DNA from: a virus
Length of the DNA: 64,000 nt
Direction: 5' to 3' (one strand)
Virus record (IMG/VR): IMGVR_UViG_3300045988_105168
Location: 32,001 to 96,000 of that record
Part shown: one piece after another, positions 650 to 58,948 of the stretch
Position numbering within the stretch: position 1 is the first letter of the stretch
Layout: every line of letters starts with the position of its first letter
The notes under the pieces: model-generated
Databases searched by the model: none
What the model saw: only the letters and a program-made list of their open reading frames with translations
Told to the model about the DNA's origin: nothing
Made by a program: the position numbers and the translations under genes

Positions 650-1708
650 CTATATTTTATCATAAATGTCAATAATTTTTTTTAAAATCTTGACAAACCT
701 TTTTATTTCGTGTAATGTATTCTGTTTACCTAAAGAAACACGTATTGTCTTCCTTGCATCTTCTTCGCTATATCCATAAGCCAATAGTATTTTAGACGGC
801 TCATCACTTGATGCATTACACGCACTACCTGCTGATACGGCAATACCCTCTTTATCTAATATGCCAACAGCAGTTTGAGCGTCTAGCTCATTAAAAGTTA
901 TATTCATAATGTTGTTATGATATGACATTTTTACGCCACTAAAATATAATTTAGAATAAATATAATTCATTAGTTTGCTATATTTCTCTTCTATCTCATA
1001 TCTGTTCTTATAAGCAAGTTCTAACGCTTTAGCCATTCCAACTATACCAGCAACATTTTCTGTTCCACCACGCAATTCGTGTTCTTGATGTCCATATATT
1101 AATGGTTTAAAGTTTTCTTGAAGGTCTCTACGAATAAACAATACACCTACACCTTTTGGAGCGCCAAATTTATGGCCACTAAAAGAAGCTGTCGCATACT
1201 TATATACTGGCTCATCTAAAGGTCTCATTACATAACTATCAGGGAACAAAGGTATCGCCGTTCTTTGTTCGTGTAGATTAATATATTCTTTACCAGCTGC
1301 CTGTGTTAAATCAACGTGACAACAATCAAAGCAGTCGTGATATATGTAATGTTTACCACCGACCTCACTATCAACCAATGGATAAGACATAATTTGAGCT
1401 TTACGAACATTGTTATTAGCCATTATCATTGAGTCGTGAGAGAATGGCGAACATTCACATTTAAAGTTTTTAGAAACCCACGAATTTGACTCGCTAGCAC
1501 CGCTTGTAAAGAATATTTCATCTTCGTAACACCCTAATAATTCAGCAATCTTTTCCCTCGCTTTATCAATAGCTAAACGGGCTTTTCTGCCCTCTTGATG
1601 AATACTGCTAGGATTTCCATATTCTGTCGTTAAATAAGGCATCATCGCTTTTAAAACACGCTTATCAATAGGTGTCGTAGCGGCGTTATCCAAATAAATT
1701 CTCTTCAC
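650..1708 (-). CDS. class V aminotransferase, NifS/IscS-like cysteine desulfurase
   Basis: N-terminal [12 protein letters not shown]-lysine motif [12 protein letters not shown] and active-site cysteine loop [10 protein letters not shown] are all present in the 352-aa ORF. Confidence 0.8.
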
Positions 1709-31691: not shown

Positions 31692-33451
31692 TAATATATA
31701 TAACCTACTAAATATTTTAATGCGTCCACATCGGCACGTCCTATATCGGCTTTACCTTGTTTCTCATATTCAAAAACAACAGATAAACCATACATTAAAG
31801 AAGTGGCGCGGTCACGCTTTGCGGATTTAACTATACGGTCATATAATATTTGACCATTTAATCCGAAATCTCTTTTTATATTACTAAGCTCCTGCATTAA
31901 ATTATCGTGCTCTACGTGCATCACCTGTTCTGCCGCATCATACTTACCACTCTTATATAATTCATCAGTTTCGTTACTATCTACCAATAGTTTTAAACTC
32001 TGGTCTTCAAAACAACTCTTCATATAAGGATAATAAGTGCTATTGAATTCAGCCGTTGCTTGCACACCTCTAATAATAGGTTCAGCATTAGGCAATGTTC
32101 TCATAGTTTCTTCATCGTCATCTTGAATTAAAGGTGGATATTCTTCAATATCTCCTTTTTCATTTCGATAACTCCAAGGCTCTTCTAATAAAGATAAAAG
32201 ACCCTGTCCAGCACTACGAACGTCGATAACCAATTTCTCTGTATTAGGAAATTGAATATGCAATAATTCTCTTAATAATTCCCTTTGTTCTTTTAAACTA
32301 GCCCCGTTTAAAGTTTTGGTATACACAACGTGTTTGTCAAATGTACCATTACTTTTTGGGATAAGTTTAATAACGTGAGTACACGAGTTGTCCGAACCGC
32401 TCTTAGTTGATACGGCAACGTCGTGTGTAATTATGTATGAGTATTGTGTTTTTTTAGGCTGTGATAATTCACATCTATCTAAAACTCTACACTTATTAGT
32501 TAATGAATAAGGATAATAACTATCGTTAGAACTACCAACGAATGTTCCTTCATACTCATACGCAAATTTATCTAAAGACATATCTGGACTTTCTTTTTCT
32601 AGTTCAATTTCTTCCATAGAAAATAGTCCAGCGTCTATACCTACTTGATAATCTAAGCTAGCAACAAAATAATGTTTGTCACCACTTATCATCGAATGAT
32701 AGAAGTTTAAAAACTTTTGATATAAGTCGCAAGTCTTTAACCACGCAGATGAAATATAAATCATTCTACCTTTTTCAATAGGATTTTCTGGGTATCTATC
32801 GTGTAAATCGATAGCGTTTTGTCTTGGAGTTTTAATCATCGGTCTAATAACTTCTGTTAAAGTGTTATCTCTAACAAGTCTGGCCTCGTCCACTAAAACT
32901 AATTGAAAACGCCAACCACGAGCATTATCACCTTTTTGGTTAGTACCTAATGTAATTGCCCTAATTGAACTACCATTTTTTAGTTTAACTATACAGTCAT
33001 CGGTACCAGCCTTAATAGAAGCAATCTCTCTTCGGATATTTTCATTCTTAGATAATTCACCTTCTATTTTTTGTTTAATAACCATACGTGCTTGATTACC
33101 ATTTCCAGATACTATACCAATAGCCATACCTGGATATAAAATAGCCATACATATCATAAATACCGCACATAGCCAAGATTTACCAAGACCACGACAACAA
33201 ATTAACATTGCATTTGGGTATCTTGCCATAGCTCGCATAATTAACCTTTGAAAAGGGAATAAATTTATACCTAATATATCAACCGCAAATTTATCAATAT
33301 AGTATCTATAATAAGATAAGAATTTTGTCCATTCTTCATAATCGATACTCTCCTGATTAATTGGGTCGTAACTTAATGGGTTGTCAGTGTTGTTATTACT
33401 CCAATCTTGTTCTGCTCGTCTTTTTTTACTGAAGTTTTTATATGATGCCAT
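31691..33451 (-). CDS. terL: terminase large subunit
   Basis: 586 aa. Walker A-like CCRGLGKSW, Walker B LVLVDEA, and a C-terminal nuclease-type region with conserved acidic residues. Confidence 0.85.
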   Translation of the reverse strand: MASYKNFSKKRRAEQDWSNNNTDNPLSYDPINQESIDYEEWTKFLSYYRYYIDKFAVDILGINLFPFQRLIMRAMARYPNAMLICCRGLGKSWLCAVFMICMAILYPGMAIGIVSGNGNQARMVIKQKIEGELSKNENIRREIASIKAGTDDCIVKLKNGSSIRAITLGTNQKGDNARGWRFQLVLVDEARLVRDNTLTEVIRPMIKTPRQNAIDLHDRYPENPIEKGRMIYISSAWLKTCDLYQKFLNFYHSMISGDKHYFVASLDYQVGIDAGLFSMEEIELEKESPDMSLDKFAYEYEGTFVGSSNDSYYPYSLTNKCRVLDRCELSQPKKTQYSYIITHDVAVSTKSGSDNSCTHVIKLIPKSNGTFDKHVVYTKTLNGASLKEQRELLRELLHIQFPNTEKLVIDVRSAGQGLLSLLEEPWSYRNEKGDIEEYPPLIQDDDEETMRTLPNAEPIIRGVQATAEFNSTYYPYMKSCFEDQSLKLLVDSNETDELYKSGKYDAAEQVMHVEHDNLMQELSNIKRDFGLNGQILYDRIVKSAKRDRATSLMYGLSVVFEYEKQGKADIGRADVDALKYLVGYIY

Positions 33452-35496: not shown

Positions 35497-35590
35497 ATCT
35501 TCTCTCCTTTTTTACTGTGAAATCTTATTTTTCTCTTTCATTAATAATATTTTTGTATCGAACAAGTGTTTGCCCTGTATTTATAAGGGT

Positions 35591-36376
35591 TTACGAGGTT
35601 TGGGTTTTCAAACCTCTCTTCTTTTCCCTTGTTTTTCTTAAATTTTCTTGATATGCACACATTGTGCAGTATTTTTTTGGTGAACGTGTTTTTTTAATAA
35701 CTATTCCACATATAGCGCATCTTTTGTATTCTGTAGGCTTTTCGTAAATCATTAATTCGCCTAGTACATTTTCATAATTTGAAATCTCAATCGCCACTTC
35801 GCCATTGTTTTTTGCGAATGGTATATAAATATAATTATGTGATTTAAAATTATCTATTTTATATAACCCTTTATTAAATAATAAATTACACAATCTATAT
35901 CTATCGGCCACTCTGAGTTTGGATAAACCAGCCAACTTCCATAAATCATTATTATTTTCAACAACCATCATAATTTCATTTTTCTTACTATAGAACTGTA
36001 AGTGTCTAACTTTACAAGCCCATTTATAATATACCAAATAAATAAATAACAAATTTCTCGCAAGCTCTTCCTCTATAGCCTCAATAATTTCTAATTCCTC
36101 TTTATATATTTCAACCTTAATACCAGTCACAAACTCATACTCGTTTGCTTTTGATATAATTTTAGAGAATATCATATCTTTATCTCTGTCTGATAAATAT
36201 TCACCACCAGACATAGGTATATTAGACAATACCTCTTTAATCTCAGAATGAGAATAGTTTAGAGATGTTAGATGTCGTACCAAAATACAACGTTCTCGAC
36301 CTTGTGTTTTTACAGTGCTGTATTTCTTATTAGCTATAATCTCTTCTGCATATTTCTTTTCATCGAATACTAACAT
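35591..36376 (-). CDS. hypothetical protein with C-terminal zinc ribbon and basic tail
   Basis: 261 aa, CAICG...CTMC then KTREKKRGLK. Start overlaps the RNA polymerase stop. Confidence 0.5.
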   Translation of the reverse strand: MLVFDEKKYAEEIIANKKYSTVKTQGRERCILVRHLTSLNYSHSEIKEVLSNIPMSGGEYLSDRDKDMIFSKIISKANEYEFVTGIKVEIYKEELEIIEAIEEELARNLLFIYLVYYKWACKVRHLQFYSKKNEIMMVVENNNDLWKLAGLSKLRVADRYRLCNLLFNKGLYKIDNFKSHNYIYIPFAKNNGEVAIEISNYENVLGELMIYEKPTEYKRCAICGIVIKKTRSPKKYCTMCAYQENLRKTREKKRGLKTQTS

Positions 36377-39120
36377 CTCTTTACCTCCTCTAAAGAATAA
36401 TGATGACCTAAATACTCAAATCCATTTTCATCTTCCACAACTACCTGTGATTTGCCATACGGAATAATATCTATAATATCATCACCTATAATATCCCAAA
36501 TACAATCATAAGACCATCCATTACGCTCACATAATACTATTAAGTGGTTAAATAGTTCTTTAAAAGATGTAAATAATTCTAACATCTCATTTTTATACTC
36601 ATCACGATTAGCATATAAGACATTTTTTAAAATCTCATTCATATCGTCATCTTGAATACCCTCATTGTCTACCAACGCCTCAATACCTTTATATTTACGT
36701 TGTGCCTTATACTCTTTATATATTTGTTCTAGTTTTGCCATCTTATCTTCTTCTACTTCTATGTCTTCTGCAAACTCTGGCAATAAACTTACACAATTAG
36801 GTTTGTATTTTATATCAAACTCTACATTCTCTATTTCTTTACATAATAAATTCATAATACAATCTGTTTCTAAAACAGGAGAATACTTACGATATTTTCT
36901 TAATAAATTCATTTCGCCCTCAGTGTGGTCTTTCTTTCGTAATAAAACTTTAATAGGGACTCCAAAATGAGTTAAACTAATACTATTAAAATTCTTCTCA
37001 TAATTCTTATAGTCATTCATAAGCGTATTATATAAATAAATAAAGAAATATGGTTTTTTCTTAACTACCATCGAATTGTATTTATATTTCTCTGCTTTGG
37101 TTATATCATCGTCGTCCTTATTGATATGTACCCAATGCCTCCAAGACTTAGGAAAGTTTGGTGGGGTTGTTCCTTTGATTTTATCAATCTCAGCCCCTTG
37201 TAATTCTCTCAGTAATTTTAATCTTTTCTCAATTTCTTCTTTTTGCTCTACCTGTTTTTCGCCTCTAAACAAAGGTAACATTGCAAGCATACTTGTAGAG
37301 TAGTTTGTAATCTGCCCTACTTTTGTATCAAGTCCTTTAATATCACATCTTACTTGATTTGGTAAAGTTATCTTTTGTGTAGGCACAGCCTCTTTATCAT
37401 ACATAATAGGGAGTTCATCTCTTTTTGCTCCTTTTAAGAAATAAGGATTGTCTGTTGCCATACAAATATCCCCATCAAAATCGGAGTCGGCGTGTTTTAC
37501 AACACTAATATCATAGATGTTATAAATAATACCGCTATATATATATTTATACCATTTACGCATTTCCTCAGTATTAGCAAGTTGTTGTACATTAACTTCA
37601 GAATAATGTGTCAATGGACTTCTTAACAAACAAACCTCTCCAGTAATATTTCTTTCATTCCAGAAGTTACCATAAACATAATTCGCTGGCAATAAACCGT
37701 CTGGACTTAACCCAAGAGCACTTCGACATTGAGCTACTGGGTCACTAATCATAAATGAATAATTACCCTTTACCCAAATACGACCGATTTTTGCTTGGCG
37801 TATACTTTCCTTAATAGAATTATAAATCTTTCTTTGAATAAATCCGTCTTTTAACATTTCAGGATTTTTAATGATAGCTTTTGTAAATACACTACCACAA
37901 GAATTAATAATACTATCAATATTAAGCGCTGGATTTTTTACACCAACATTATATGTTAAAGCATATTCAATATTTCCACTACAAATGTTTTTTATCCATT
38001 CTGTTGTATACGATACCAAACCAGCAATATCTTCTTTGGTTAAATCTAAAACTTGAATATATTGATAATTGGTTAAAACATATTCATCGTCTGCTTCTTT
38101 GTTATAACGGGCTACTCCCCATTTTAAATTATATGCTTTGTGATAACTTAAATATCCTTCCCAAGAAGAATAATATTTCGCCATCTTAAATTGACTCTCA
38201 GATAATAAAACGTCAATATCATCAATATTGTATTCTGTACCGTATCTATCTTTAATAGTTAAAACCCCGTGTTCTTTAGCATATGCTTTAAAATCAAAAG
38301 GAACCAAGTTACCTTTAACAAACGCTGTTCTTACAACAAACGAACAAGGTGTATAATTTAAATGCATATCCTCCGCCCAACATTTTGCCATTTCTGGACT
38401 TATTAAACCTTGACCATCGGCACTATTTAATTTTATATCTTTATAAATTTGTTCTACTGTATTACCATCTTCTGTCTTATTAATCCAGTTTAACTTTTGT
38501 TGAGGGATTACAGTATCAAAATCTTTAATGACACACACTCTTGGTTCTCTTACCCATAATACAGATGAAAAAGATAAAGCATAATAAGCGGATAATTTTG
38601 CTAGATTAATTGTCTTAATCTTTCCGTTAAGACCACACATCAATCTCTCTTGCATATAATCAAATAATTCTTCATTGATAAAAGAAACAGTATTTCTTCT
38701 CATTTGTCCTGAACCAACCATAAACCTAACATAATGTTTACCATTTAAATCAAAACCATTACGTCCCAATTCTCTATATTCTTTTTTTGTGACAACTTTT
38801 ATATTAATAATATCGTCTACAAATAATAAGTCGTCTAATTGTGATTGTAGGTCTTTAATCTGATTTAAACTATCTGGAGTTGTTGGTTGTTTTCTTATTT
38901 CTTTCATTTCTTTACGAATTGATTGAACTTGATTATATAAAGACACGTGGTCTCTATCGTCATTATAATACTCCCTAATTTTAGCGAGTACTAAATTATC
39001 ACCAATAGAAACAACATTCCCGTCTCTTGATGCCTCTTTAAATGAATAATGTGTCATTTTGCCAATCTTGTTTGATGGTATCTTATAGATATAATAAGAA
39101 TTTTGTAAAACCTTTGCCAC
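36370..39120 (-). CDS. single-subunit two-barrel RNA polymerase (YonO / cellular RdRP-like)
   Basis: 916 aa. LLRSPLTHYSEV followed by HADSDFDGDICMATDNPYF, the RxP...DxDGD catalytic signature of double-psi-beta-barrel RNAPs/RdRPs. GTG start 5 nt after AGGAGGG. Confidence 0.7.
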   Translation of the reverse strand: MAKVLQNSYYIYKIPSNKIGKMTHYSFKEASRDGNVVSIGDNLVLAKIREYYNDDRDHVSLYNQVQSIRKEMKEIRKQPTTPDSLNQIKDLQSQLDDLLFVDDIINIKVVTKKEYRELGRNGFDLNGKHYVRFMVGSGQMRRNTVSFINEELFDYMQERLMCGLNGKIKTINLAKLSAYYALSFSSVLWVREPRVCVIKDFDTVIPQQKLNWINKTEDGNTVEQIYKDIKLNSADGQGLISPEMAKCWAEDMHLNYTPCSFVVRTAFVKGNLVPFDFKAYAKEHGVLTIKDRYGTEYNIDDIDVLLSESQFKMAKYYSSWEGYLSYHKAYNLKWGVARYNKEADDEYVLTNYQYIQVLDLTKEDIAGLVSYTTEWIKNICSGNIEYALTYNVGVKNPALNIDSIINSCGSVFTKAIIKNPEMLKDGFIQRKIYNSIKESIRQAKIGRIWVKGNYSFMISDPVAQCRSALGLSPDGLLPANYVYGNFWNERNITGEVCLLRSPLTHYSEVNVQQLANTEEMRKWYKYIYSGIIYNIYDISVVKHADSDFDGDICMATDNPYFLKGAKRDELPIMYDKEAVPTQKITLPNQVRCDIKGLDTKVGQITNYSTSMLAMLPLFRGEKQVEQKEEIEKRLKLLRELQGAEIDKIKGTTPPNFPKSWRHWVHINKDDDDITKAEKYKYNSMVVKKKPYFFIYLYNTLMNDYKNYEKNFNSISLTHFGVPIKVLLRKKDHTEGEMNLLRKYRKYSPVLETDCIMNLLCKEIENVEFDIKYKPNCVSLLPEFAEDIEVEEDKMAKLEQIYKEYKAQRKYKGIEALVDNEGIQDDDMNEILKNVLYANRDEYKNEMLELFTSFKELFNHLIVLCERNGWSYDCIWDIIGDDIIDIIPYGKSQVVVEDENGFEYLGHHYSLEEVKRC

Positions 39121-49199: not shown

Positions 49200-49224
49200 A
49201 TCTTATTCTCCTATCTTTATATAT

Positions 49225-49253
49225 ATGATACCATATTATATTACATATGTCAA
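49225..49253 (-). promoter_or_regulatory. sigma-A promoter for the leftward operon starting at 49199
   Basis: Minus strand TTGACA (49253-49248), 17 nt, TATCAT (49230-49225) preceded by TGG. Confidence 0.65.
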
Positions 49254-49272
49254 TAAAGTTTTCGCAAAAAGC

Positions 49273-49301
49273 TTGACAGATTTCCTAAATAGTAGTATAG
49301 T
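49273..49301 (+). promoter_or_regulatory. sigma-A promoter for the 36-codon peptide gene
   Basis: TTGACA (49273-49278), 17 nt, TATAGT (49296-49301). Back-to-back with the leftward promoter. Confidence 0.65.
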
Positions 49302-49340
49302 ATATACATCAAAGGCGCATAATAGAGTAAGGAGGGAATT

Positions 49341-49451
49341 ATGTTTAATTTATTATTAAGTATGTTATGTTGGAATGCCTTTAAGGCAACACCTGAGAGC
49401 AATGCAAAAAGGAGACGTTATAACTTATCTACCAATTTCAGTAGACGTTAA
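49341..49451 (+). CDS. 36-aa peptide (hydrophobic N-half, Arg-rich C-half)
   Basis: Own translation MFNLLLSMLCWNAFKATPESNAKRRRYNLSTNFSRR. TAAGGAGGG SD 6 nt upstream, own promoter and terminator. Below the track's size cut-off. Confidence 0.5.
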   Translation: MFNLLLSMLCWNAFKATPESNAKRRRYNLSTNFSRR

Positions 49452-49465
49452 GCGTCTTTTTTTTT
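49443..49465 (+). terminator. short hairpin plus T9 terminator
   Basis: AGACG-ttaag-CGTCT then nine T. The peptide stop codon lies in the loop. Confidence 0.5.
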
Positions 49466-49934
49466 GTTGTAATGCCGACAACAGTTCTATACTAAATCAT
49501 AAAAGCAGGCATTACACTGTTGTGACGAACCCGCGGTTTGCAAGGTTTGGTTTTCCCTATGGCAGAACTATGGCTGTCCTATTGCTTTTTTATATATTCT
49601 ATACTCTCTTATTCTTTAAGGACTACCCTTTTTAGCCCTTATAAATAAAGGCCTTTTAGAGCATATGGTGCAAAAAAATTTTAAAATTGAACCAAATGCG
49701 TCTTAGAGGTCTAAAAATGGTTTGCTATGGCAGCCTATAATGTATTAATAAGTAGGTGTGTATAATAAGTTGCCATAGAGTCTAGTCTATAAGCTAAGAC
49801 TGCCTATATACGAGCAAAGGCTACTAAGAGTCCTCGCGTCCCAAGTATTATTGTAAAGACTACCCCTACTAAATGTAAAAATGTAAAGAAAGCCATTATT
49901 TGTAAAGGAATTTTGGCTGTCCGTGTGTTCAGAT

Positions 49935-49954
49935 GAGACGTATGTCTCTTTTTT
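49935..49954 (+). terminator. short hairpin plus T-run terminator inside the non-coding block
   Basis: GAGAC-gtat-GTCTC followed by six T. Confidence 0.4.
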
Positions 49955-50040
49955 GTTTAGTGGCTGTATAAGGTAAGACAAGTGCTGCCTGTGTGTGAGG
50001 GAAGATTTCCTGGCAGTGTAAAGAGTAAGGAAGACTTTTT

Positions 50041-50088
50041 GGCTGGAAAAGTGTGATTTTCTGGGGGTTTTGGGCTGGAAAAATGTGA
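50041..50088 (+). repeat. direct repeat GGCTGGAAAA(G/A)TGTGA x2
   Basis: Copies at 50041-50056 and 50073-50088 in a G+T-rich stretch. Confidence 0.8.
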
Positions 50089-50176
50089 GAGCTGTGTGTT
50101 GACGTGGGAGATGGGTGTAGTTGCGTGACTACGTGGATGAGTGGAAATTCGTAAGGCGGCCTTCCGAAAAGAGCAG

Positions 50177-50235
50177 CTACATTATAAAGTGGGGGTTTTT
50201 TGCCTTTTTAATTGTAAAATACCCCCATAATGTAG
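50177..50235. other. long interrupted hairpin
   Basis: CTACATTAT-aaagt-GGGGG, 26-nt loop, CCCCC-ATAATGTAG (14 paired positions). Confidence 0.6.
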
Positions 50236-50274
50236 TATAAATGTATATTTTAACCACATAAACCACCAAACCAC

Positions 50275-50307
50275 CAAAAAAAGCCGACTACTTAACAAGT
50301 AGCCGAC
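50275..50307 (-). terminator. terminator downstream of the 193-aa AT-rich gene
   Basis: Minus strand CTACTT-gtt-AAGTAG core with flanking partial GC pairs, followed by a T run (A run 50275-50282 on plus). Confidence 0.45.
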
Positions 50308-50324
50308 TTCACAAGTATTTTTTT

Positions 50325-50906
50325 TTATGCTGTTATCTCTTCAAGTGTTATTTTATCACTAATTAAAATATAATCTTGATAATCTTTTAACCTCTTTTCA
50401 TAATGTTTAAAACTTTTATATATAATATTATCTATTGTTTTTATACTTGCTTTTATCTCTTCTTTTATCTCTTCTTTTTTATCATATTGTTTAATTAGTT
50501 TATAATCAATTATTTTATTATCTTGTTTTATAACCTTATATAAATTATAATATTTTATATAATGTAAATAGATGCTATTATTATTTTTTAAATCAAATAT
50601 AGCGAGTTGCTTGTTATCTCTTCCAACTTCTAACGCTTCCAAATAATCTATAATATGTATAGATATATCAATATACATTATATCATTATCAACCCATAAA
50701 CCAATATAAACATTATCAATATTTTTTATTTTTTCTTTTTTCTTTTCTATCTCTTTTTTAATCTCTTCTATATTGTTTATATCTGTTTTTATCTCTTCCC
50801 CGTATAAACTAACCATAAAACCATTATTATATGATATATTATTATAGTTTTTGTCTAGTGTAGCCCCCTTGTTTTCTATTATTTCAATTATTTTTTTATT
50901 ATCCAT
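50325..50906 (-). CDS. hypothetical Lys/Ile/Asn-rich protein in an AT-rich island
   Basis: 193-aa ORF. Composition is visibly more AT-rich than the rest of the window. Confidence 0.5.
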   Translation of the reverse strand: MDNKKIIEIIENKGATLDKNYNNISYNNGFMVSLYGEEIKTDINNIEEIKKEIEKKKEKIKNIDNVYIGLWVDNDIMYIDISIHIIDYLEALEVGRDNKQLAIFDLKNNNSIYLHYIKYYNLYKVIKQDNKIIDYKLIKQYDKKEEIKEEIKASIKTIDNIIYKSFKHYEKRLKDYQDYILISDKITLEEITA

Positions 50907-51001
50907 TTTTTACCGTTCCTTTACTTTTCTATTATATTTTTTTAACCTTAACCCCTTATATTCTTATTATATGTAATATATCTTTTTTTATACTCTTTTT
51001 T

Positions 51002-51244
51002 TTACTCTTCCCCCTCTTCCTCTTCTCTTTTTACTATTGCTTTTATATTCTTTTTAATTAATGATATAAAAGCCGTAAACATTATATAATTAATAATATC
51101 ACTATTAAAATATAAGTTAACTCCATCACTAGCCATTAAGTTAAGCCCATATAATAGAGCCATAAAGCCACCTAATAAAGCCATAAACCCCACATATAAA
51201 ACCCACTTTTTAAATCTCCATTTTTTAATTTTTTTTACTTTCAT
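51002..51244 (-). CDS. small membrane protein in an AT-rich island
   Basis: 80 aa with two hydrophobic helices and an acidic tail EEEEGEE. GAGG SD upstream. Confidence 0.45.
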   Translation of the reverse strand: MKVKKIKKWRFKKWVLYVGFMALLGGFMALLYGLNLMASDGVNLYFNSDIINYIMFTAFISLIKKNIKAIVKREEEEGEE

Positions 51245-51301
51245 TTTTTTAACCTCTTTTCTAGTTAAGGACTTTTTTATTATCTCCCCTTAACTAATAT
51301 A

Positions 51302-51330
51302 ATTATATCAAATAAAAAAAAATAATACAA
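51302..51330 (-). promoter_or_regulatory. sigma-A promoter for the AT-rich island genes
   Basis: Minus strand TTGTAT (51330-51325), 17 nt, TATAAT (51307-51302). Phased T/A tracts lie upstream. Confidence 0.5.
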
Positions 51331-51402
51331 GCATTTTTTTACATTTTAACATTATTTTTTTACATTTTACATTTTTTTGTAAAGTGCTTTTTTTTTGCCT
51401 TG

Positions 51403-51435
51403 TTTTTCTACTATATAAAAAAGCCGTGCTATAAT
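51403..51435 (+). promoter_or_regulatory. conserved early promoter, copy 0 (points into ORF-free repeats)
   Basis: TTTTTCTACTATAT box, TGcTATAAT. CTAC to -10 spacing is 22 nt, as in all other copies. Confidence 0.6.
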
Positions 51436-51492
51436 GTTTATAGATAAAAAAAGCAAGTATAAAAAAGCCGTTTTTATCATATAATATTAATA

Positions 51493-51528
51493 GAGCCGAC
51501 ACGAGCCACGAGCCGAACGAGCCGACAC
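51493..51528 (+). repeat. short tandem repeat GAGCC(GA)(C/A)AC x4
   Basis: GAGCCGACAC GAGCCAC GAGCCGAAC GAGCCGACAC read directly. Confidence 0.8.
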
Positions 51529-51607
51529 GAACGAATGTTCACACGAACAAGTGTTTGTCAACCAAAAAAGGTTGACAGACTAACACGAACGAATGTTTGA
51601 CACGAAT
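51525..51607 (+). repeat. two copies of ACACGAACGAATGTT..ACACGAA flanking the palindrome TGTCAACC-aaaaaa-GGTTGACA
   Basis: Direct repeats at about 51525-51548 and 51583-51607. Palindrome arms at 51556-51563 and 51570-51577. Confidence 0.75.
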
Positions 51608-51609
51608 AC

Positions 51610-51727
51610 ATAACACGGCATAGAGTTTTTGTGGGGAATTTTGCACGAGAGCATAACACGGCATAAAAAAGTTGTGGGGGAAATCGGCAGAATATAACAC
51701 GAATTTAAAAAATCGTGGGGAAATTTC
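51610..51727 (+). repeat. three tandem 41-43-nt repeats ATAACACG-N-(T/C)GTGGGG(G)AA(A)T
   Basis: Units start at 51610, 51653 and 51694. The last ends at the upstream edge of promoter copy 1. Confidence 0.8.
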
Positions 51728-51764: not shown

Positions 51765-51825
51765 TAAAGCAGAAAAGGACATAATATAAGTAGAGCAACA
51801 AAAAAATAAAAAAAAGTTAAAAAAA

Positions 51826-51889: not shown

Positions 51890-52105
51890 TTGTATAAAAA
51901 CGAGATTAAAAAAGAATTACAAGCCATTTATAATAGCAATAAAAACATTGATAATGAATTAGTGAATATTAAGGTTGCTATACATAATTTGGAGAAATTA
52001 GGTTGTAATACAAAAGACCTTGAAAAAATGCTTGATAACATTGGAATTGAATTTTATAAATTTAAAGTTGAGAATAAAGAAGTATTAAAGAATTGGAGAG
52101 TGTAA
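51890..52105 (+). CDS. small early protein
   Basis: The likely start is TTG 51890 (GAGGTG 6 nt upstream). The track's start at 51845 lies inside promoter copy 2. Confidence 0.45.
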   Translation: MYKNEIKKELQAIYNSNKNIDNELVNIKVAIHNLEKLGCNTKDLEKMLDNIGIEFYKFKVENKEVLKNWRV

Positions 52106-52393: not shown

Positions 52394-52408
52394 GCCAAAA
52401 TCTAGCAG

Positions 52409-52490
52409 AACGGAAAGAAATCACACACTATAAGGTTTTTGAAATACCTATAACGGAAAGCAATGGAAAGAAATCACGGAATATAAGGTT
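52409..52490 (+). repeat. 29-nt direct repeat (AAYGGAAAGAAATCAC....TATAAGGTT) x2 in a GGAAAG-rich untranslated spacer
   Basis: Copies at 52409-52437 and 52462-52490. Further (A/T)(A/C)GGAAA(G/C) words lie between and after them. Confidence 0.75.
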
Positions 52491-52546
52491 ATGGAAAGCA
52501 GAGCCATAACACGAGCCGTGAAAAAGAACGGAAACGAGGGAAAATT

Positions 52547-54622: not shown

Positions 54623-54994
54623 ATGGAAATTAAAAAAATCATTTGTAAAAGTGGAAGAGAATATAATATAGTAAATGAATATTGGGAAACAAGCCGTGCT
54701 TGGGGACATAAAAGCACACTTGTAGCACAATGGGGAGATATGGGGAGCAGAAAAGTAACATATCAAAATAGAACTTGGGAAAGTTATAAATATCAAACTT
54801 GTATGTATGGTTTATTAAGTAGCATTTTAGAAAATGATTTAAAAGACTATATAACACGAGAAAAAGAAAACAAGGGTATAACAAGACTTTCAAAAGAGAT
54901 TAGAGCAGAATTAGAGCAAGAGTGGAATAACAACTCTTATACACAAGATTTAAAAGAAATACAAGAAAGAATTAGTAATAGAAATTTTGATTAA
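54623..54994 (+). CDS. early protein
   Basis: 123-aa ORF with a GAGGTG SD. Confidence 0.5.
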   Translation: MEIKKIICKSGREYNIVNEYWETSRAWGHKSTLVAQWGDMGSRKVTYQNRTWESYKYQTCMYGLLSSILENDLKDYITREKENKGITRLSKEIRAELEQEWNNNSYTQDLKEIQERISNRNFD

Positions 54995-57835: not shown

Positions 57836-57843
57836 CACGGCAA

Positions 57844-57903
57844 ACAAAACTCTTATGAGTTTTGTGAGTAGCATTATGCTCCGTTCCGTGTAGTGCTATT
57901 CAC
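57844..57903 (+). other. two adjacent hairpins in a 110-nt untranslated spacer
   Basis: ACAAAACTC-ttat-GAGTTTTGT (9 bp) and GTGAGTAGCA-20 nt-TGCTATTCAC (10 bp with one G-U). The spacer is flanked by TATAACACG words at 57831 and 57921. Confidence 0.55.
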
Positions 57904-57944
57904 AAAGCCCATAAGGGTAATATAACACGAGGAGGAATAAAGAA

Positions 57945-58538: not shown

Positions 58539-58778
58539 ATGTATAATGGTAATATGCAGATATTAATATATGAAAATGTAAATTATACAAAAGTAGGAAG
58601 TATGCAGTCAATTTCATTAGCACCGATAGGGGCAACATTAGAATTAAATGGCAAGGCATATAGAATAATTGATTATATTATATTAGAGCAATGTACTACT
58701 TTATATATGGTTGTAAAACTTATTTCAAAGCACGAATATAGTGCATACGAGGGTTTAAAGAATAGAGGTGTAATATAA
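58539..58778 (+). CDS. small early protein
   Basis: 79-aa ORF with a GAGGGAG SD. Confidence 0.5.
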   Translation: MYNGNMQILIYENVNYTKVGSMQSISLAPIGATLELNGKAYRIIDYIILEQCTTLYMVVKLISKHEYSAYEGLKNRGVI

Positions 58779-58948
58779 TGACAAAAGAACAATTAATGAA
58801 TAATTTATATGAGATTATAGCAGAACATATTGAGGAATTGGCATACGAAAACGGAGCAAGTATTTATTTGACTGATAAAAACGAATTATATATTGATTTG
58901 AACGATACCGAACAAGTGTTCGTGTTGAAAGCAGAGGTGGAAAAGTAA
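58778..58948 (+). CDS. small acidic early protein (56 aa, not in the ORF track)
   Basis: Own translation MTKEQLMNNLYEIIAEHIEELAYENGASIYLTDKNELYIDLNDTEQVFVLKAEVEK. GAGGTG SD upstream. TAATG overlap with the next gene. Confidence 0.5.
   Translation: MTKEQLMNNLYEIIAEHIEELAYENGASIYLTDKNELYIDLNDTEQVFVLKAEVEK

Follow-up and report, generated by a model that had tools for sequence, protein, structure and literature searches.

A candidate SOS-gated control region heading the early operon of a large, uncultured phage from the gut

An extra early promoter, P0, in the 64,000-nucleotide stretch of viral DNA analysed here (the window: IMG/VR record IMGVR_UViG_3300045988_105168, positions 32,001 to 96,000) is followed not by a gene but by tandem repeats. 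An earlier interpretation made from the letters alone, hereafter the sequence-only reading, had proposed these repeats as an early RNA that mimics the antitoxin of a type III toxin–antitoxin system or, equally, as an array of operators or iterons. We find that the region does not look like antitoxin-mimic RNA and is best read as a DNA-level control region. To the more specific proposal, drawn from sequence and from analogy, that it would head the early operon of a temperate or plasmid-prophage-type phage and be gated by the SOS response, we give an even chance. The terminase encoded in the window shares 53% identity with that of Clostridium phage c-st and about 30% with SPbeta-group terminases, and on such sequence grounds the source is a large (~115-kb) uncultured gut phage, kin to c-st and more distantly to Bacillus phage SPbeta.

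LexA-type boxes flank a palindrome downstream of P0

The repeats lie inside a 645-nucleotide (nt) gap between a leftward gene block and rightward early genes, where the direction of transcription switches. The middle of the repeat tract carries three copies of the 15-mer ACACGAACGAATGTT (at 51525, 51541 and 51583), where the sequence-only reading had counted two, together with the inverted repeat that this reading had described, which is perfect (Table 1). The Gram-positive LexA operator is CGAAC-N4-GTTCG in Bacillus subtilis and Staphylococcus aureus and takes the form GAACnnnnGTTC/GTTT in clostridia. All three boxes of the window cassette fit CGAAC-N4-GTTCG / GAACnnnnGTT(C/T), and the ACACGAACGAATGTT repeats are therefore best read as predicted LexA-type SOS boxes, to which we infer that LexA binds. 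For the pattern CGAAC-N4-GTTY, of which 0.42 sites would be expected in the window, we count 6, a number reached in 0 of 100 shuffles. Across the window and eight relatives, 18 boxes fall within the ~300-nt gaps between P0 and the next promoter, P1, compared with 6 in ~98 kb of flanking sequence.

To place these elements in an evolutionary setting, we assembled 14 distinct related phages that cover the gap, gathered through a promoter-pattern scan, a scan of three public collections with a pattern of two of the repeat units described below, and a search for homologues of the conserved flanking DUF7249 protein followed by contig look-ups. Their flanking genes are 68–90% identical. SOS box 2 is either identical or a perfect CGAACAAGTGTTCG in L059, L060 and L061, and the orthologue of SOS box 3 is a perfect CGAACAAGTGTTCG in the same three phages. 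L061 and L070 have two boxes each, three of these four being the exact 14-bp palindrome CGAACAAGTGTTCG and the remaining one, in L070, reading CGAACGAGTGTTCG; L059 and L060 have one CGAACAAGTGTTCG each. L053 has lost the palindrome and two boxes and keeps only the downstream GAACGAATGTTT box, a box also found in L060. The inverted repeat between boxes 2 and 3 is identical in L059 and L060, 1 nt off in L061, degenerate in L079 and deleted in L053. The box–palindrome–box block is near-invariant in four phages, with flanking sequence that has diverged or been lost. A scan of IMG/VR with the 15-mer ACACGAACGAATGTT returned 49 single chance matches, none of them informative.

We considered other roles for the palindrome. 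No run of T follows it on either strand, as a terminator would have, and the back-to-back TTGACA hexamers that it creates are accompanied by no conserved −10 element, as a promoter would need. Upstream of SOS box 1 lies the GAGCCGACAC-type repeat, a CACG-rich tract that merges into that box and contains one CGAAC half-site at 51512-51516. This repeat is lineage-specific: L053 and L060 lack it, and in L059 and L061 CACGAC repeats stand in its place. Within the 235-nt repeat tract as a whole, CACG occurs 10 times and CGTG once.

Two further boxes lie outside the P0 cassette. The box at 35559 sits in the short gap that separates the YonO-type RNA polymerase genes, upstream, from the packaging and structural genes, downstream; this gap is syntenic with the place where SPbeta YonO starts the late operon, and the hairpin GAGGTTTG...CAAACCTC precedes the box. 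The box occupies the same position in 6 of 7 close relatives, with its RAAC and GTTY half-sites kept and six variants of the central N4 (ACTT, GTTT, AAAT, GTAA, ATAT and GTAC). Half-sites that are kept while N4 varies are what would be expected of a genuine dimer operator, and LexA may thus control the start of the late operon through this site. The perfect palindrome CGAACAAGTGTTCG at 58909 lies at the 3′ end of an early open reading frame (ORF), 58778-58948.

Table 1 Positions of promoters, repeats, predicted SOS boxes and bipartite units in the window
Feature	Coordinates	Strand	Description
Auxiliary early promoter P0	51403..51435	+	TTTCTACTATAT at 51405-51416, 10 nt, extended −10 TGcTATAAT at 51427-51435
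Second TATAAT	51481..51486	+	~45 nt past the P0 −10
GAGCCGACAC-type tandem repeat	51493..51530	+	Tandem Repeats Finder: period 9, 4.2 copies
SOS (LexA/Cheo) box 1, predicted	51528..51541		CGAAC-GAAT-GTTCA (CGAACGAATGTTCA); fits CGAAC-N4-GTTCG and the clostridial GAACnnnnGTTC form
SOS box 2, predicted	51544..51557		CGAAC-AAGT-GTTTG (CGAACAAGTGTTTG); overlaps the left palindrome arm by 2 nt
Inverted repeat	51556..51577		TGTCAACC-A6-GGTTGACA; perfect 8-bp arms, 22 bp in total, between SOS boxes 2 and 3
SOS box 3, predicted	51586..51599		CGAAC-GAAT-GTTTG (CGAACGAATGTTTG)
Unit 1	51610..51639	+	ATAACACG-N13-GTGGGGAAT; weight-matrix score 28.2
Unit 2	51653..51683	+	ATAACACG-N13-GTGGGGGAAAT; weight-matrix score 35.9
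Unit 3	51694..51723	+	ATAACACG-N13-GTGGGGAAAT; weight-matrix score 34.5; ends 7 nt before the T-run opening P1
Early promoter P1	51734..51764	+	Same type as P0; opened by a run of T
Early promoter P2	51826..51856	+	TGgTATACT; serves the first early gene, 51890-52105
Solitary fourth unit	52506..52535	+	ATAACACG-N13-AACGGAAAC; weight-matrix score 30.0; leader of the third early gene (start codon 52547)
Late-operon SOS box, predicted	35559..35572		Gap downstream of YonO-type RNA polymerase genes, upstream of packaging/structural genes
SOS box 58909, predicted	58909..58922		CGAACAAGTGTTCG, a perfect palindrome; 3′ end of early ORF 58778-58948

Conservation points to P0 as a maintained auxiliary early promoter

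The sequence-only reading had described P0 as sharing its register with the other early promoter copies and as being followed by no ORF, and both observations hold. P0 has the TGnTATAAT sequence of an extended −10 promoter of the sigma-A type, in the same architecture as the promoters that precede genes, with a transcript start predicted near 51442. Its register is identical to that of 7 other copies (51734, 51826, 53499, 54387, 56029, 57530 and 59213), and copies that are exact or differ by one mismatch are confined to the plus strand from 51405 onward. Downstream of P0 all three frames are closed, and there is no ORF that has a ribosome-binding site and start codon. The earlier count of eight gene-serving copies, in contrast, requires revision: six lie inside the window, and copy 1 (P1) serves no gene here, its gene being present in L053 and deleted in the window. 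Only ~60 nt separate P1 from P2 in the window (51765-51825), and the corresponding interval of L053 (4120-4395) holds a 65-amino-acid gene.

P0 occupies the same position in 14 of 14 relatives, in each case with that phage's own upstream element. Because this element co-varies with the other early promoters of each phage, there is good evidence in the sequences that P0 is a real, maintained extra promoter. No terminator-like site is found between 51436 and 51890, so transcripts from P0 would run into P1, P2 and the early genes. A second TATAAT downstream of P0 might serve as a further, weak promoter or as a pause element resembling a −10; L061, L070, L072 and L079 have a TATAAT at a similar distance, and L053, L059 and L060 do not.

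We compared the 12–14-nt element that fills the −35 slot of the early promoters in the window and in relatives L053, L055, L056, L059-L061 and L070-L081. The element is uniform within a phage and differs between close relatives (TTTCTACTATAT, AAACTACTAAATA, AAAGTCCTATATTT, TTTACTTCCCTAGT and others), and TGnTATAAT always follows at the same distance. In L056, two extra tandem copies of that phage's own element stand without a −10. This pattern suggests that the element is read by a phage-specific factor of the immunity type. It recalls the SPBRE elements bound by MrpR, the master repressor of SPbeta (PMC10516654): in both cases an element of ~12–15 bp is repeated at many early promoters of a large phage of the same broad group, and here it sits in the −35 position, uniform in each genome and variable between phages, as an immunity-type operator would be expected to do. 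SPBRE and the −35-slot element differ in that they share no sequence similarity. We also examined an early protein with a tyrosine-recombinase fold as a possible MrpR homologue and found no specific similarity (E = 9.3). Alternatively, a phage-specific activator or a sigma-like factor might read the element.

The layout of the gap is conserved and its operator slot appears exchangeable

A common layout is seen in all 14 relatives: a leftward gene, an AT-rich stretch, P0, 200–350 nt without a gene, P1 and the first early gene. The order inside the gene-free tract is likewise shared, running from P0 through an operator slot and two to three oriented two-box units to P1. CGAAC-N4-GTTY palindromes fill the operator slot in the window and in 8 of the 14 relatives. 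In L076-78 and L081 the slot has no SOS boxes and holds unrelated repeats instead: a 27-nt direct repeat, present three times in L076 and two to three times in L077 and L078, and, in L081, GTCAAGTA-type repeats. This distribution fits an operator slot that is an exchangeable cassette, which would set the induction signal.

The cassette can also be lost. L055 corresponds to L070 minus ~237 nt, with the junction inside a 44-nt promoter repeat; the whole P0-to-P1 cassette is gone and the flanking genes are intact. Judged from this junction, the L055 cassette was lost through recombination between promoter copies. Together with the lost P1 gene in the window, the L055 deletion shows that genes of the early region are lost by way of the repeated promoters.

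A model for LexA gating of P0 transcripts

In the mechanism that we consider, transcripts initiated at P0 would have to cross a cassette of protein-binding sites before reaching P1, P2 and the early genes, and the core of this cassette would be the three LexA-type SOS boxes flanking the perfect 22-bp palindrome. In an undamaged host, LexA dimers, possibly joined by a second protein on the palindrome, would block P0-initiated transcription 86–157 nt past its start. Upon DNA damage, RecA-stimulated self-cleavage of LexA would clear the block, and the released P0 transcripts would continue into the early genes, pushing the phage towards lytic growth. The late packaging operon, headed by an SOS box, and the early region, with a box inside it, would both be coupled to the same signal. 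We found no LexA-like protein, S24 peptidase, helix-turn-helix repressor, lysogeny repressor or co-repressor among the window proteins, so the binder would be host LexA. A tyrosine recombinase encoded in the genome and a perfect parS in some relatives speak for a temperate or plasmid-prophage lifestyle.

The parS sites are the sequence TGTTTCACGTGAAACA, which we take to be the chromosomal parS (ParB/Spo0J) consensus. A perfect copy stands directly after the DUF7249 gene in L072 (2783-2798), L073 (1574-1589), L074 (2783-2798), L075 (2783-2798), L079 (2790-2805) and L080 (1064-1079), and the window has no copy. The site hints that these relatives may use host partition proteins, in the manner of plasmid prophages or of phi29-like spore entrapment.

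Looser parallels of a borrowed host LexA are found in CTXphi and in phage 186 and its relatives, whose antirepressors are under LexA control. The closest precedent is GIL01 of Bacillus thuringiensis, which has tandem early promoters P1-P2; host LexA binds dinBox1 and dinBox1b downstream of the first start, and a 58-amino-acid phage protein binds direct repeats at the second promoter (PMC4551915, PMC11511902). GIL01 lysogeny rests on LexA in place of a CI-type repressor, a logic that was shown experimentally (PMC4551915, PMC11511902). The window shares with GIL01 the tandem early promoters that head the early genes, the Gram-positive SOS boxes downstream of the first promoter's start, the direct repeats at the next promoter and, as a putative feature here, the link of a late promoter to an SOS box. 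The extrachromosomal GIL01 prophage uses host LexA and not a CI-type repressor, and none of the latter was seen in the window.

The two systems also differ. GIL01 is a 15-kb tectivirus, whereas the window derives from a ~115-kb tailed phage. Three full boxes and a palindrome lie 86–157 nt downstream here, compared with the GIL01 boxes beside the start site, and the repeats by P1 are bipartite 30-nt units rather than the 8-nt GGGACAAA repeats of GIL01. No gp7-like or gp1-like protein was identified in the window phage. By analogy, the SOS-box part of the region belongs to a known class, the prophage switches that borrow host LexA, with GIL01 as its closest member. Specific to the present case are the size and type of the phage, the three boxes and palindrome as a putative downstream roadblock, and the conserved box at the head of the late operon.

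Several observations weigh against SOS gating. The boxes lie at +86 to +157 from P0 and −243 to −172 from P1 and overlap no recognisable promoter; measured from the second TATAAT they lie at about +36 to +107, again overlapping no −35 or −10 element. Because they overlap no promoter and are farther downstream than those of GIL01, repression would need a roadblock. In the P0 cassettes N4 is mostly AAGT or GAAT, a uniformity that could reflect recent common descent or a binder other than LexA. Should the −35-slot element, which P0 shares with the other early promoters, prove to be an operator for a repressor, P0 would be closed regardless of LexA. The window encodes no repressor or co-repressor of its own, as described above, and the LexA model leaves the units, the GAGCC repeat and the palindrome unaccounted for. 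The cassette is absent from L055, hence not essential. Finally, the sole host label, a metagenome-assembled genome (MAG) bin named Candidatus Coprovivens, establishes neither the host nor the host LexA; the putative host it gives, in the class Bacilli of the Bacillota, is compatible with a Bacillota-type LexA operator.

Oriented bipartite units form a separate conserved element

Between the operator slot and P1 lie three tandem units, starting at 51610, 51653 and 51694 (spacings of 43 and 41 nt). The sequence-only reading had described them as 41–43-nt repeats ending exactly where promoter copy 1 begins; the units are present, and the last of them ends 7 nt short of it. In 15 units from five phages, box A (ATAACACG), the 13-nt length of the spacer and GTGGGG are invariant, amounting to 8 + 6 nt per unit, while the sequence of the spacer varies and the unit period takes values of 29, 30, 34, 35 and 41–44 nt. 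Unit 3 is identical in L053, L059 and L060 and 1 nt off in L061, despite the different promoter elements of these phages. More distant relatives have the same architecture with another second box, ATAAC-NNN-N13-AACGGGG or TACGGGG. Compared with the SOS boxes, the units constitute an element of their own, older and conserved more widely.

A solitary fourth unit stands in the leader of the third early gene. It is found at the same position in at least seven relatives (L053, L055, L059, L061, L070, L072 and L074), and in several relatives its second box abuts or overlaps the ribosome-binding site. Box A itself occurs in 8 copies in the window, all on the plus strand and in the early region, against 1.64 expected. 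A weight matrix built from 22 units finds 5 matches in 64 kb, all on the plus strand (the three array units, 52506 and a weak one at 54851), with 0 minus-strand matches in the window or in the 14 relatives and about none in shuffles.

Two early gaps that lack a standard promoter contain related motifs. In the first (52394-52546), which is free of ORFs, a pair of 36-nt repeats (AACGGAAAGAAATCAC..TATAAGGTT, spacing 53) precedes the solitary unit, and GGAAAGAAAT-type motifs recur in the same gap of relatives. The second (57836-57944) holds a 9-bp hairpin, ACAAAACTC-TTAT-GAGTTTTGT, and two ATAACACG boxes, of which the second directly abuts the ribosome-binding site of the next gene.

To judge by their sequence pattern, the units most probably serve as asymmetric sites to which a conserved factor of phage or host, acting on the same leader, would bind. 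The two boxes are 21 bp apart from start to start, approximately two helical turns, and the outer spacing is free. Such a pattern fits an asymmetric protein site on DNA or a promoter for a transcription factor and is less typical of an unstructured RNA site. The suggestion of the sequence-only reading that the region is an operator array stands for its middle element, where the ACACGAACGAATGTT repeats are LexA-type boxes; its proposal that each unit is an operator with CACG...YGTG half-sites does not, the unit being asymmetric across the family.

An RNA function for the units deserves consideration. The P0 leader RNA could carry them as binding modules, acting as a sponge, as a translational operator or in nut-like loading of a factor, with the solitary unit as the target or a second loading site. 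Their strict orientation is consistent with this idea, as are the placement of every unit in non-coding leader sequence that is predicted to be transcribed, the contact of the solitary unit with the ribosome-binding site in several phages and the free length of the linkers, which independent RNA modules would have. In GTGGGG-type units, moreover, the C/T and A/G variation beside CACG/GTG is compatible with G-U pairing. No secondary structure is conserved, however: CACG...YGTG pairing holds in 50% of cells across the 22 units, and AACGGGG-type units cannot form the hairpin, so we rejected an intra-unit CACGR/YYGTG hairpin as a feature of the family. Folding energy is below that of shuffles on both strands, somewhat more so on the plus strand (z of −3.9, against −2.5 on the minus strand), and because the effect is seen on both, these scores mainly reflect DNA palindromes. 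The rigid 13-nt spacing of unpaired boxes is more typical of double-stranded DNA recognition, and no terminator is present that would define a discrete RNA. Rfam yields no match in the region, either at gathering scores across the whole window or at E <= 1 across 47–53 kb. No candidate RNA-binding protein was identified; the DUF7249 protein has a confident predicted structure (pLDDT 92.6) that finds no match in a fold search of the PDB. On balance we consider an RNA element unlikely.

Lambda-type nut sites (boxA + boxB) offer a resemblance that rests on position and shape alone: like the units, they are oriented, bipartite, transcribed, present in multiple copies and located between early promoters and early genes. 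The units differ in having no boxB-type hairpin and no first gene encoding an N-like arginine-rich protein, and three tandem copies are unusual for nut. We found no described counterpart of the bipartite unit in Rfam, the literature or annotated phage and plasmid records. It is conceivable, though we judge it quite unlikely, that the units constitute a new oriented, transcribed control module, with three copies on an SOS-released P0 leader and one before the third early gene, that captures a host or phage factor. If so, the factor would be an RNA-binding protein held on a decoy or translational operator, or one loaded on the elongating polymerase in a nut-like manner, and only polymerases released by damage would carry the signal into the early operon.

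The units might also be promoters in their own right, their boxes serving as −35-like and −10-like elements for a phage-specified sigma factor or appropriator on the host polymerase, or for another phage polymerase, and defining a second temporal class of rightward transcription. Invariant boxes with a fixed spacer length, free spacer sequence and free distance to neighbours, co-orientation with the downstream genes and a location always just upstream of a gene start or another promoter would all suit such a role. Only four good copies exist in 64 kb, however, with none in the late block, and no sigma factor was found among the window proteins. Set beside the Bacillus sigma consensus sequences as we know them, box B (GTGGGG or AACGGGG) is unlike any known −10 element. 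A unit-like motif is absent from the gap syntenic with the SPbeta YonO start (35497-35590), which makes YonO promoters unlikely; having also found no late-strand copies, we rejected the units as late (YonO) promoters. Promoter function for the units is accordingly a doubtful prospect, and one that we rate as distinctly unlikely. By-eye comparison with consensus sequences as we know them gave misfits in spacing or key positions for DnaA boxes, sigma-B and sigma-F promoters, NrdR and Spo0A boxes, Shine-Dalgarno-type stabilisers, CRISPR repeats and Cas12a handles.

The repeats do not resemble a type III antitoxin array

The sequence-only reading was right that the repeats are present and exceed chance, and their elements recur in independent related phages. 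Its central suggestion was that an early-transcribed array acts as a decoy for a type III toxin, as pseudo-ToxI-like RNAs do. The likeness to type III arrays (ToxI, CptI and TenpI) and to phage pseudo-ToxI lies in short tandem units of ~35–45 nt behind a promoter in a phage, here three units of 41–43 nt downstream of an early promoter; type III systems also occur in gut Firmicutes. In type III arrays the unit length is fixed, whereas here it ranges from 29 to 44 nt among relatives and only the boxes are conserved. The region has no conserved fold or terminator, and the window encodes no matching toxin: searches of its 102 proteins with Pfam and PADLOC found no ToxN, AbiE or other toxin or defence family, except for a DndA/SspA-like desulfurase.

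The predicted look-alike repeats in host genomes did not materialise. In a two-unit pattern scan of 185,579 species genomes, IMG/VR and JGI metagenomes, only relatives of the window phage matched; the scan needs exact boxes, and a strongly diverged host counterpart would be missed. Within these collections no matching array thus exists outside this phage group. Taken together, the variable period, the lack of a fold, terminator and toxin and the lack of a host array make an antitoxin-mimic RNA extremely improbable.

Packaging site, origin and promoter stacking as alternatives

The position of the gap invites comparison with SPbeta, in which the pac or genome opening region lies between yonP and yonR (bioRxiv 10.1101/2021.11.22.469490). 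The repeats could accordingly be sites for a small terminase or a replication initiator in a pac recognition region or an origin. The gap is topologically equivalent to the SPbeta packaging opening point, with a leftward yonP/yonO/late block on one side and rightward early genes on the other, and both gaps have G-run/A-run motifs on the early strand, four RGGGGAWA in the case of the SPbeta-type gap. Several metagenome contigs end inside or beside the gap, and the region coincides with the minimum of the cumulative GC skew. Yet there is no sequence homology to the SPbeta region, and in the window the polymerase gene is set apart from the gap by 12 kb of small genes. Because the skew minimum falls at the transcription switch, it adds no independent evidence. 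The contig ends scatter from 50587 to 51541, in assemblies that are AT-rich and of low coverage, and we did not rely on them as physical termini. The terminal repeats of c-st, considered as a packaging model, carry none of the motifs.

The natural variants are more telling. The loss of the whole cassette from L055, which keeps its flanking genes, argues against an origin or packaging role, as does the loss of the palindrome from L053; an essential cis site should not vanish in this way. Likewise, an iteron-type origin would have phased repeats near replication genes, whereas the units have a period of 29–44 nt with no helical phasing and the primase-helicase and polymerase genes lie more than 50 kb from the gap. 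An AT-rich stretch does exist (51310-51400) but carries divergent promoters. Overall, iterons, which the sequence-only reading had listed as a further option, are unlikely, and we hold a pac or origin function to be very improbable.

A largely non-adaptive explanation would be recombination among repeated promoter/leader cassettes of an early region that is hyperplastic, by which intervening genes are deleted and regulatory fragments are left behind. T4-type 'promoter-early stem-loop' cassettes, with stacking, were reportedly described by Arbiol et al. in 2010. The promoter-repeat junction in L055 and the gene behind P1 that the window has lost and L053 still carries are examples of such events; the array units and the solitary leader unit look homologous, and unit number and spacing vary between phages. 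Set against this, the order of P0, operator slot, two to three units and P1 is kept in 14 phages with flanking genes only 68–90% identical, boxes stay invariant while linkers drift, and the half-sites of the SOS boxes are under clear constraint. Debris would not be kept in this manner. Promoter recombination could account for some of the stacking but not for the conserved order and invariant boxes, and stacking as the main explanation strikes us as very doubtful.

Genomic context of the gap

The window is AT-rich, with a G+C content of 27–38%. Between 650 and 51244 nearly all genes are on the minus strand, including those for the tape-measure protein, the terminase and a 916-amino-acid protein with a Pfam RdRP match, and small plus-strand genes run from 51890 onward. 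Outside the window, the genome encodes a DnaG/DnaB-type primase-helicase, PolIII-alpha and the tyrosine recombinase. Neither megablast nor blastn found a close DNA relative of the window among GenBank phages, and the PLSDB plasmids gave only a 43-nt chance match. An identical early protein is present in many human-gut metagenome samples, the longest contig that carries it measuring 114.8 kb, and contig ERZ27229688:k119_272451 belongs to the phage. Copies of the gap from other samples are 100% identical across it, with no population variation.

The 916-amino-acid protein (36370-39120, minus strand) matches the Pfam RdRP family, which includes the single-chain RNA polymerase YonO of SPbeta, at E 1e-17. 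YonO-type polymerases use a promoter that has yet to be defined (PMC5467207), for which the conserved gap at 35497-35590 would be a candidate location. At the far end of the minus-strand block, the desulfurase gene (650-1708, minus strand) encodes a class-V aminotransferase/cysteine desulfurase with best PADLOC matches to SspA and DndA. It adjoins a CHAP-LysM lysin gene, between the structural and replication modules, and no other Dnd or Ssp genes were seen.

Two further elements lie on the other side of the switch in transcription. An ORF-poor stretch (49200-50320) of the minus-strand block contains a plus-strand ORF of 36 amino acids (49341-49451; MFNLLLSMLCWNAFKATPESNAKRRRYNL...) with a strong AAGGAGG ribosome-binding site, which is kept in three relatives with mostly synonymous changes and stands back to back with a minus-strand TTGACA-N17-TATCAT promoter. 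Its product, with a hydrophobic head and a basic tail, resembles type I toxins, of which SPbeta carries yonT and bsrG. Closer to P0, a likely leftward promoter on the minus strand (51266-51305, extended −10 TGATATAAT) is followed by a conserved 5′-leader hairpin (TAGTTAAGG...CCTTAACTA) before the gene for an 80-amino-acid membrane protein.

Implications for large gut phages

The comparative set separates three cis-elements that can be tested individually: the −35-slot elements, the exchangeable operator cassettes and the conserved oriented bipartite unit. If LexA does gate the auxiliary promoter, a widespread group of ~100–115-kb uncultured human-gut phages, seen in dozens of samples, would be wired to the host's DNA-damage response, and its induction by antibiotics and inflammation would be predicted. 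The borrowed-LexA strategy of the GIL01 type would then extend from small tectiviruses to large SPbeta/c-st-like tailed phages.

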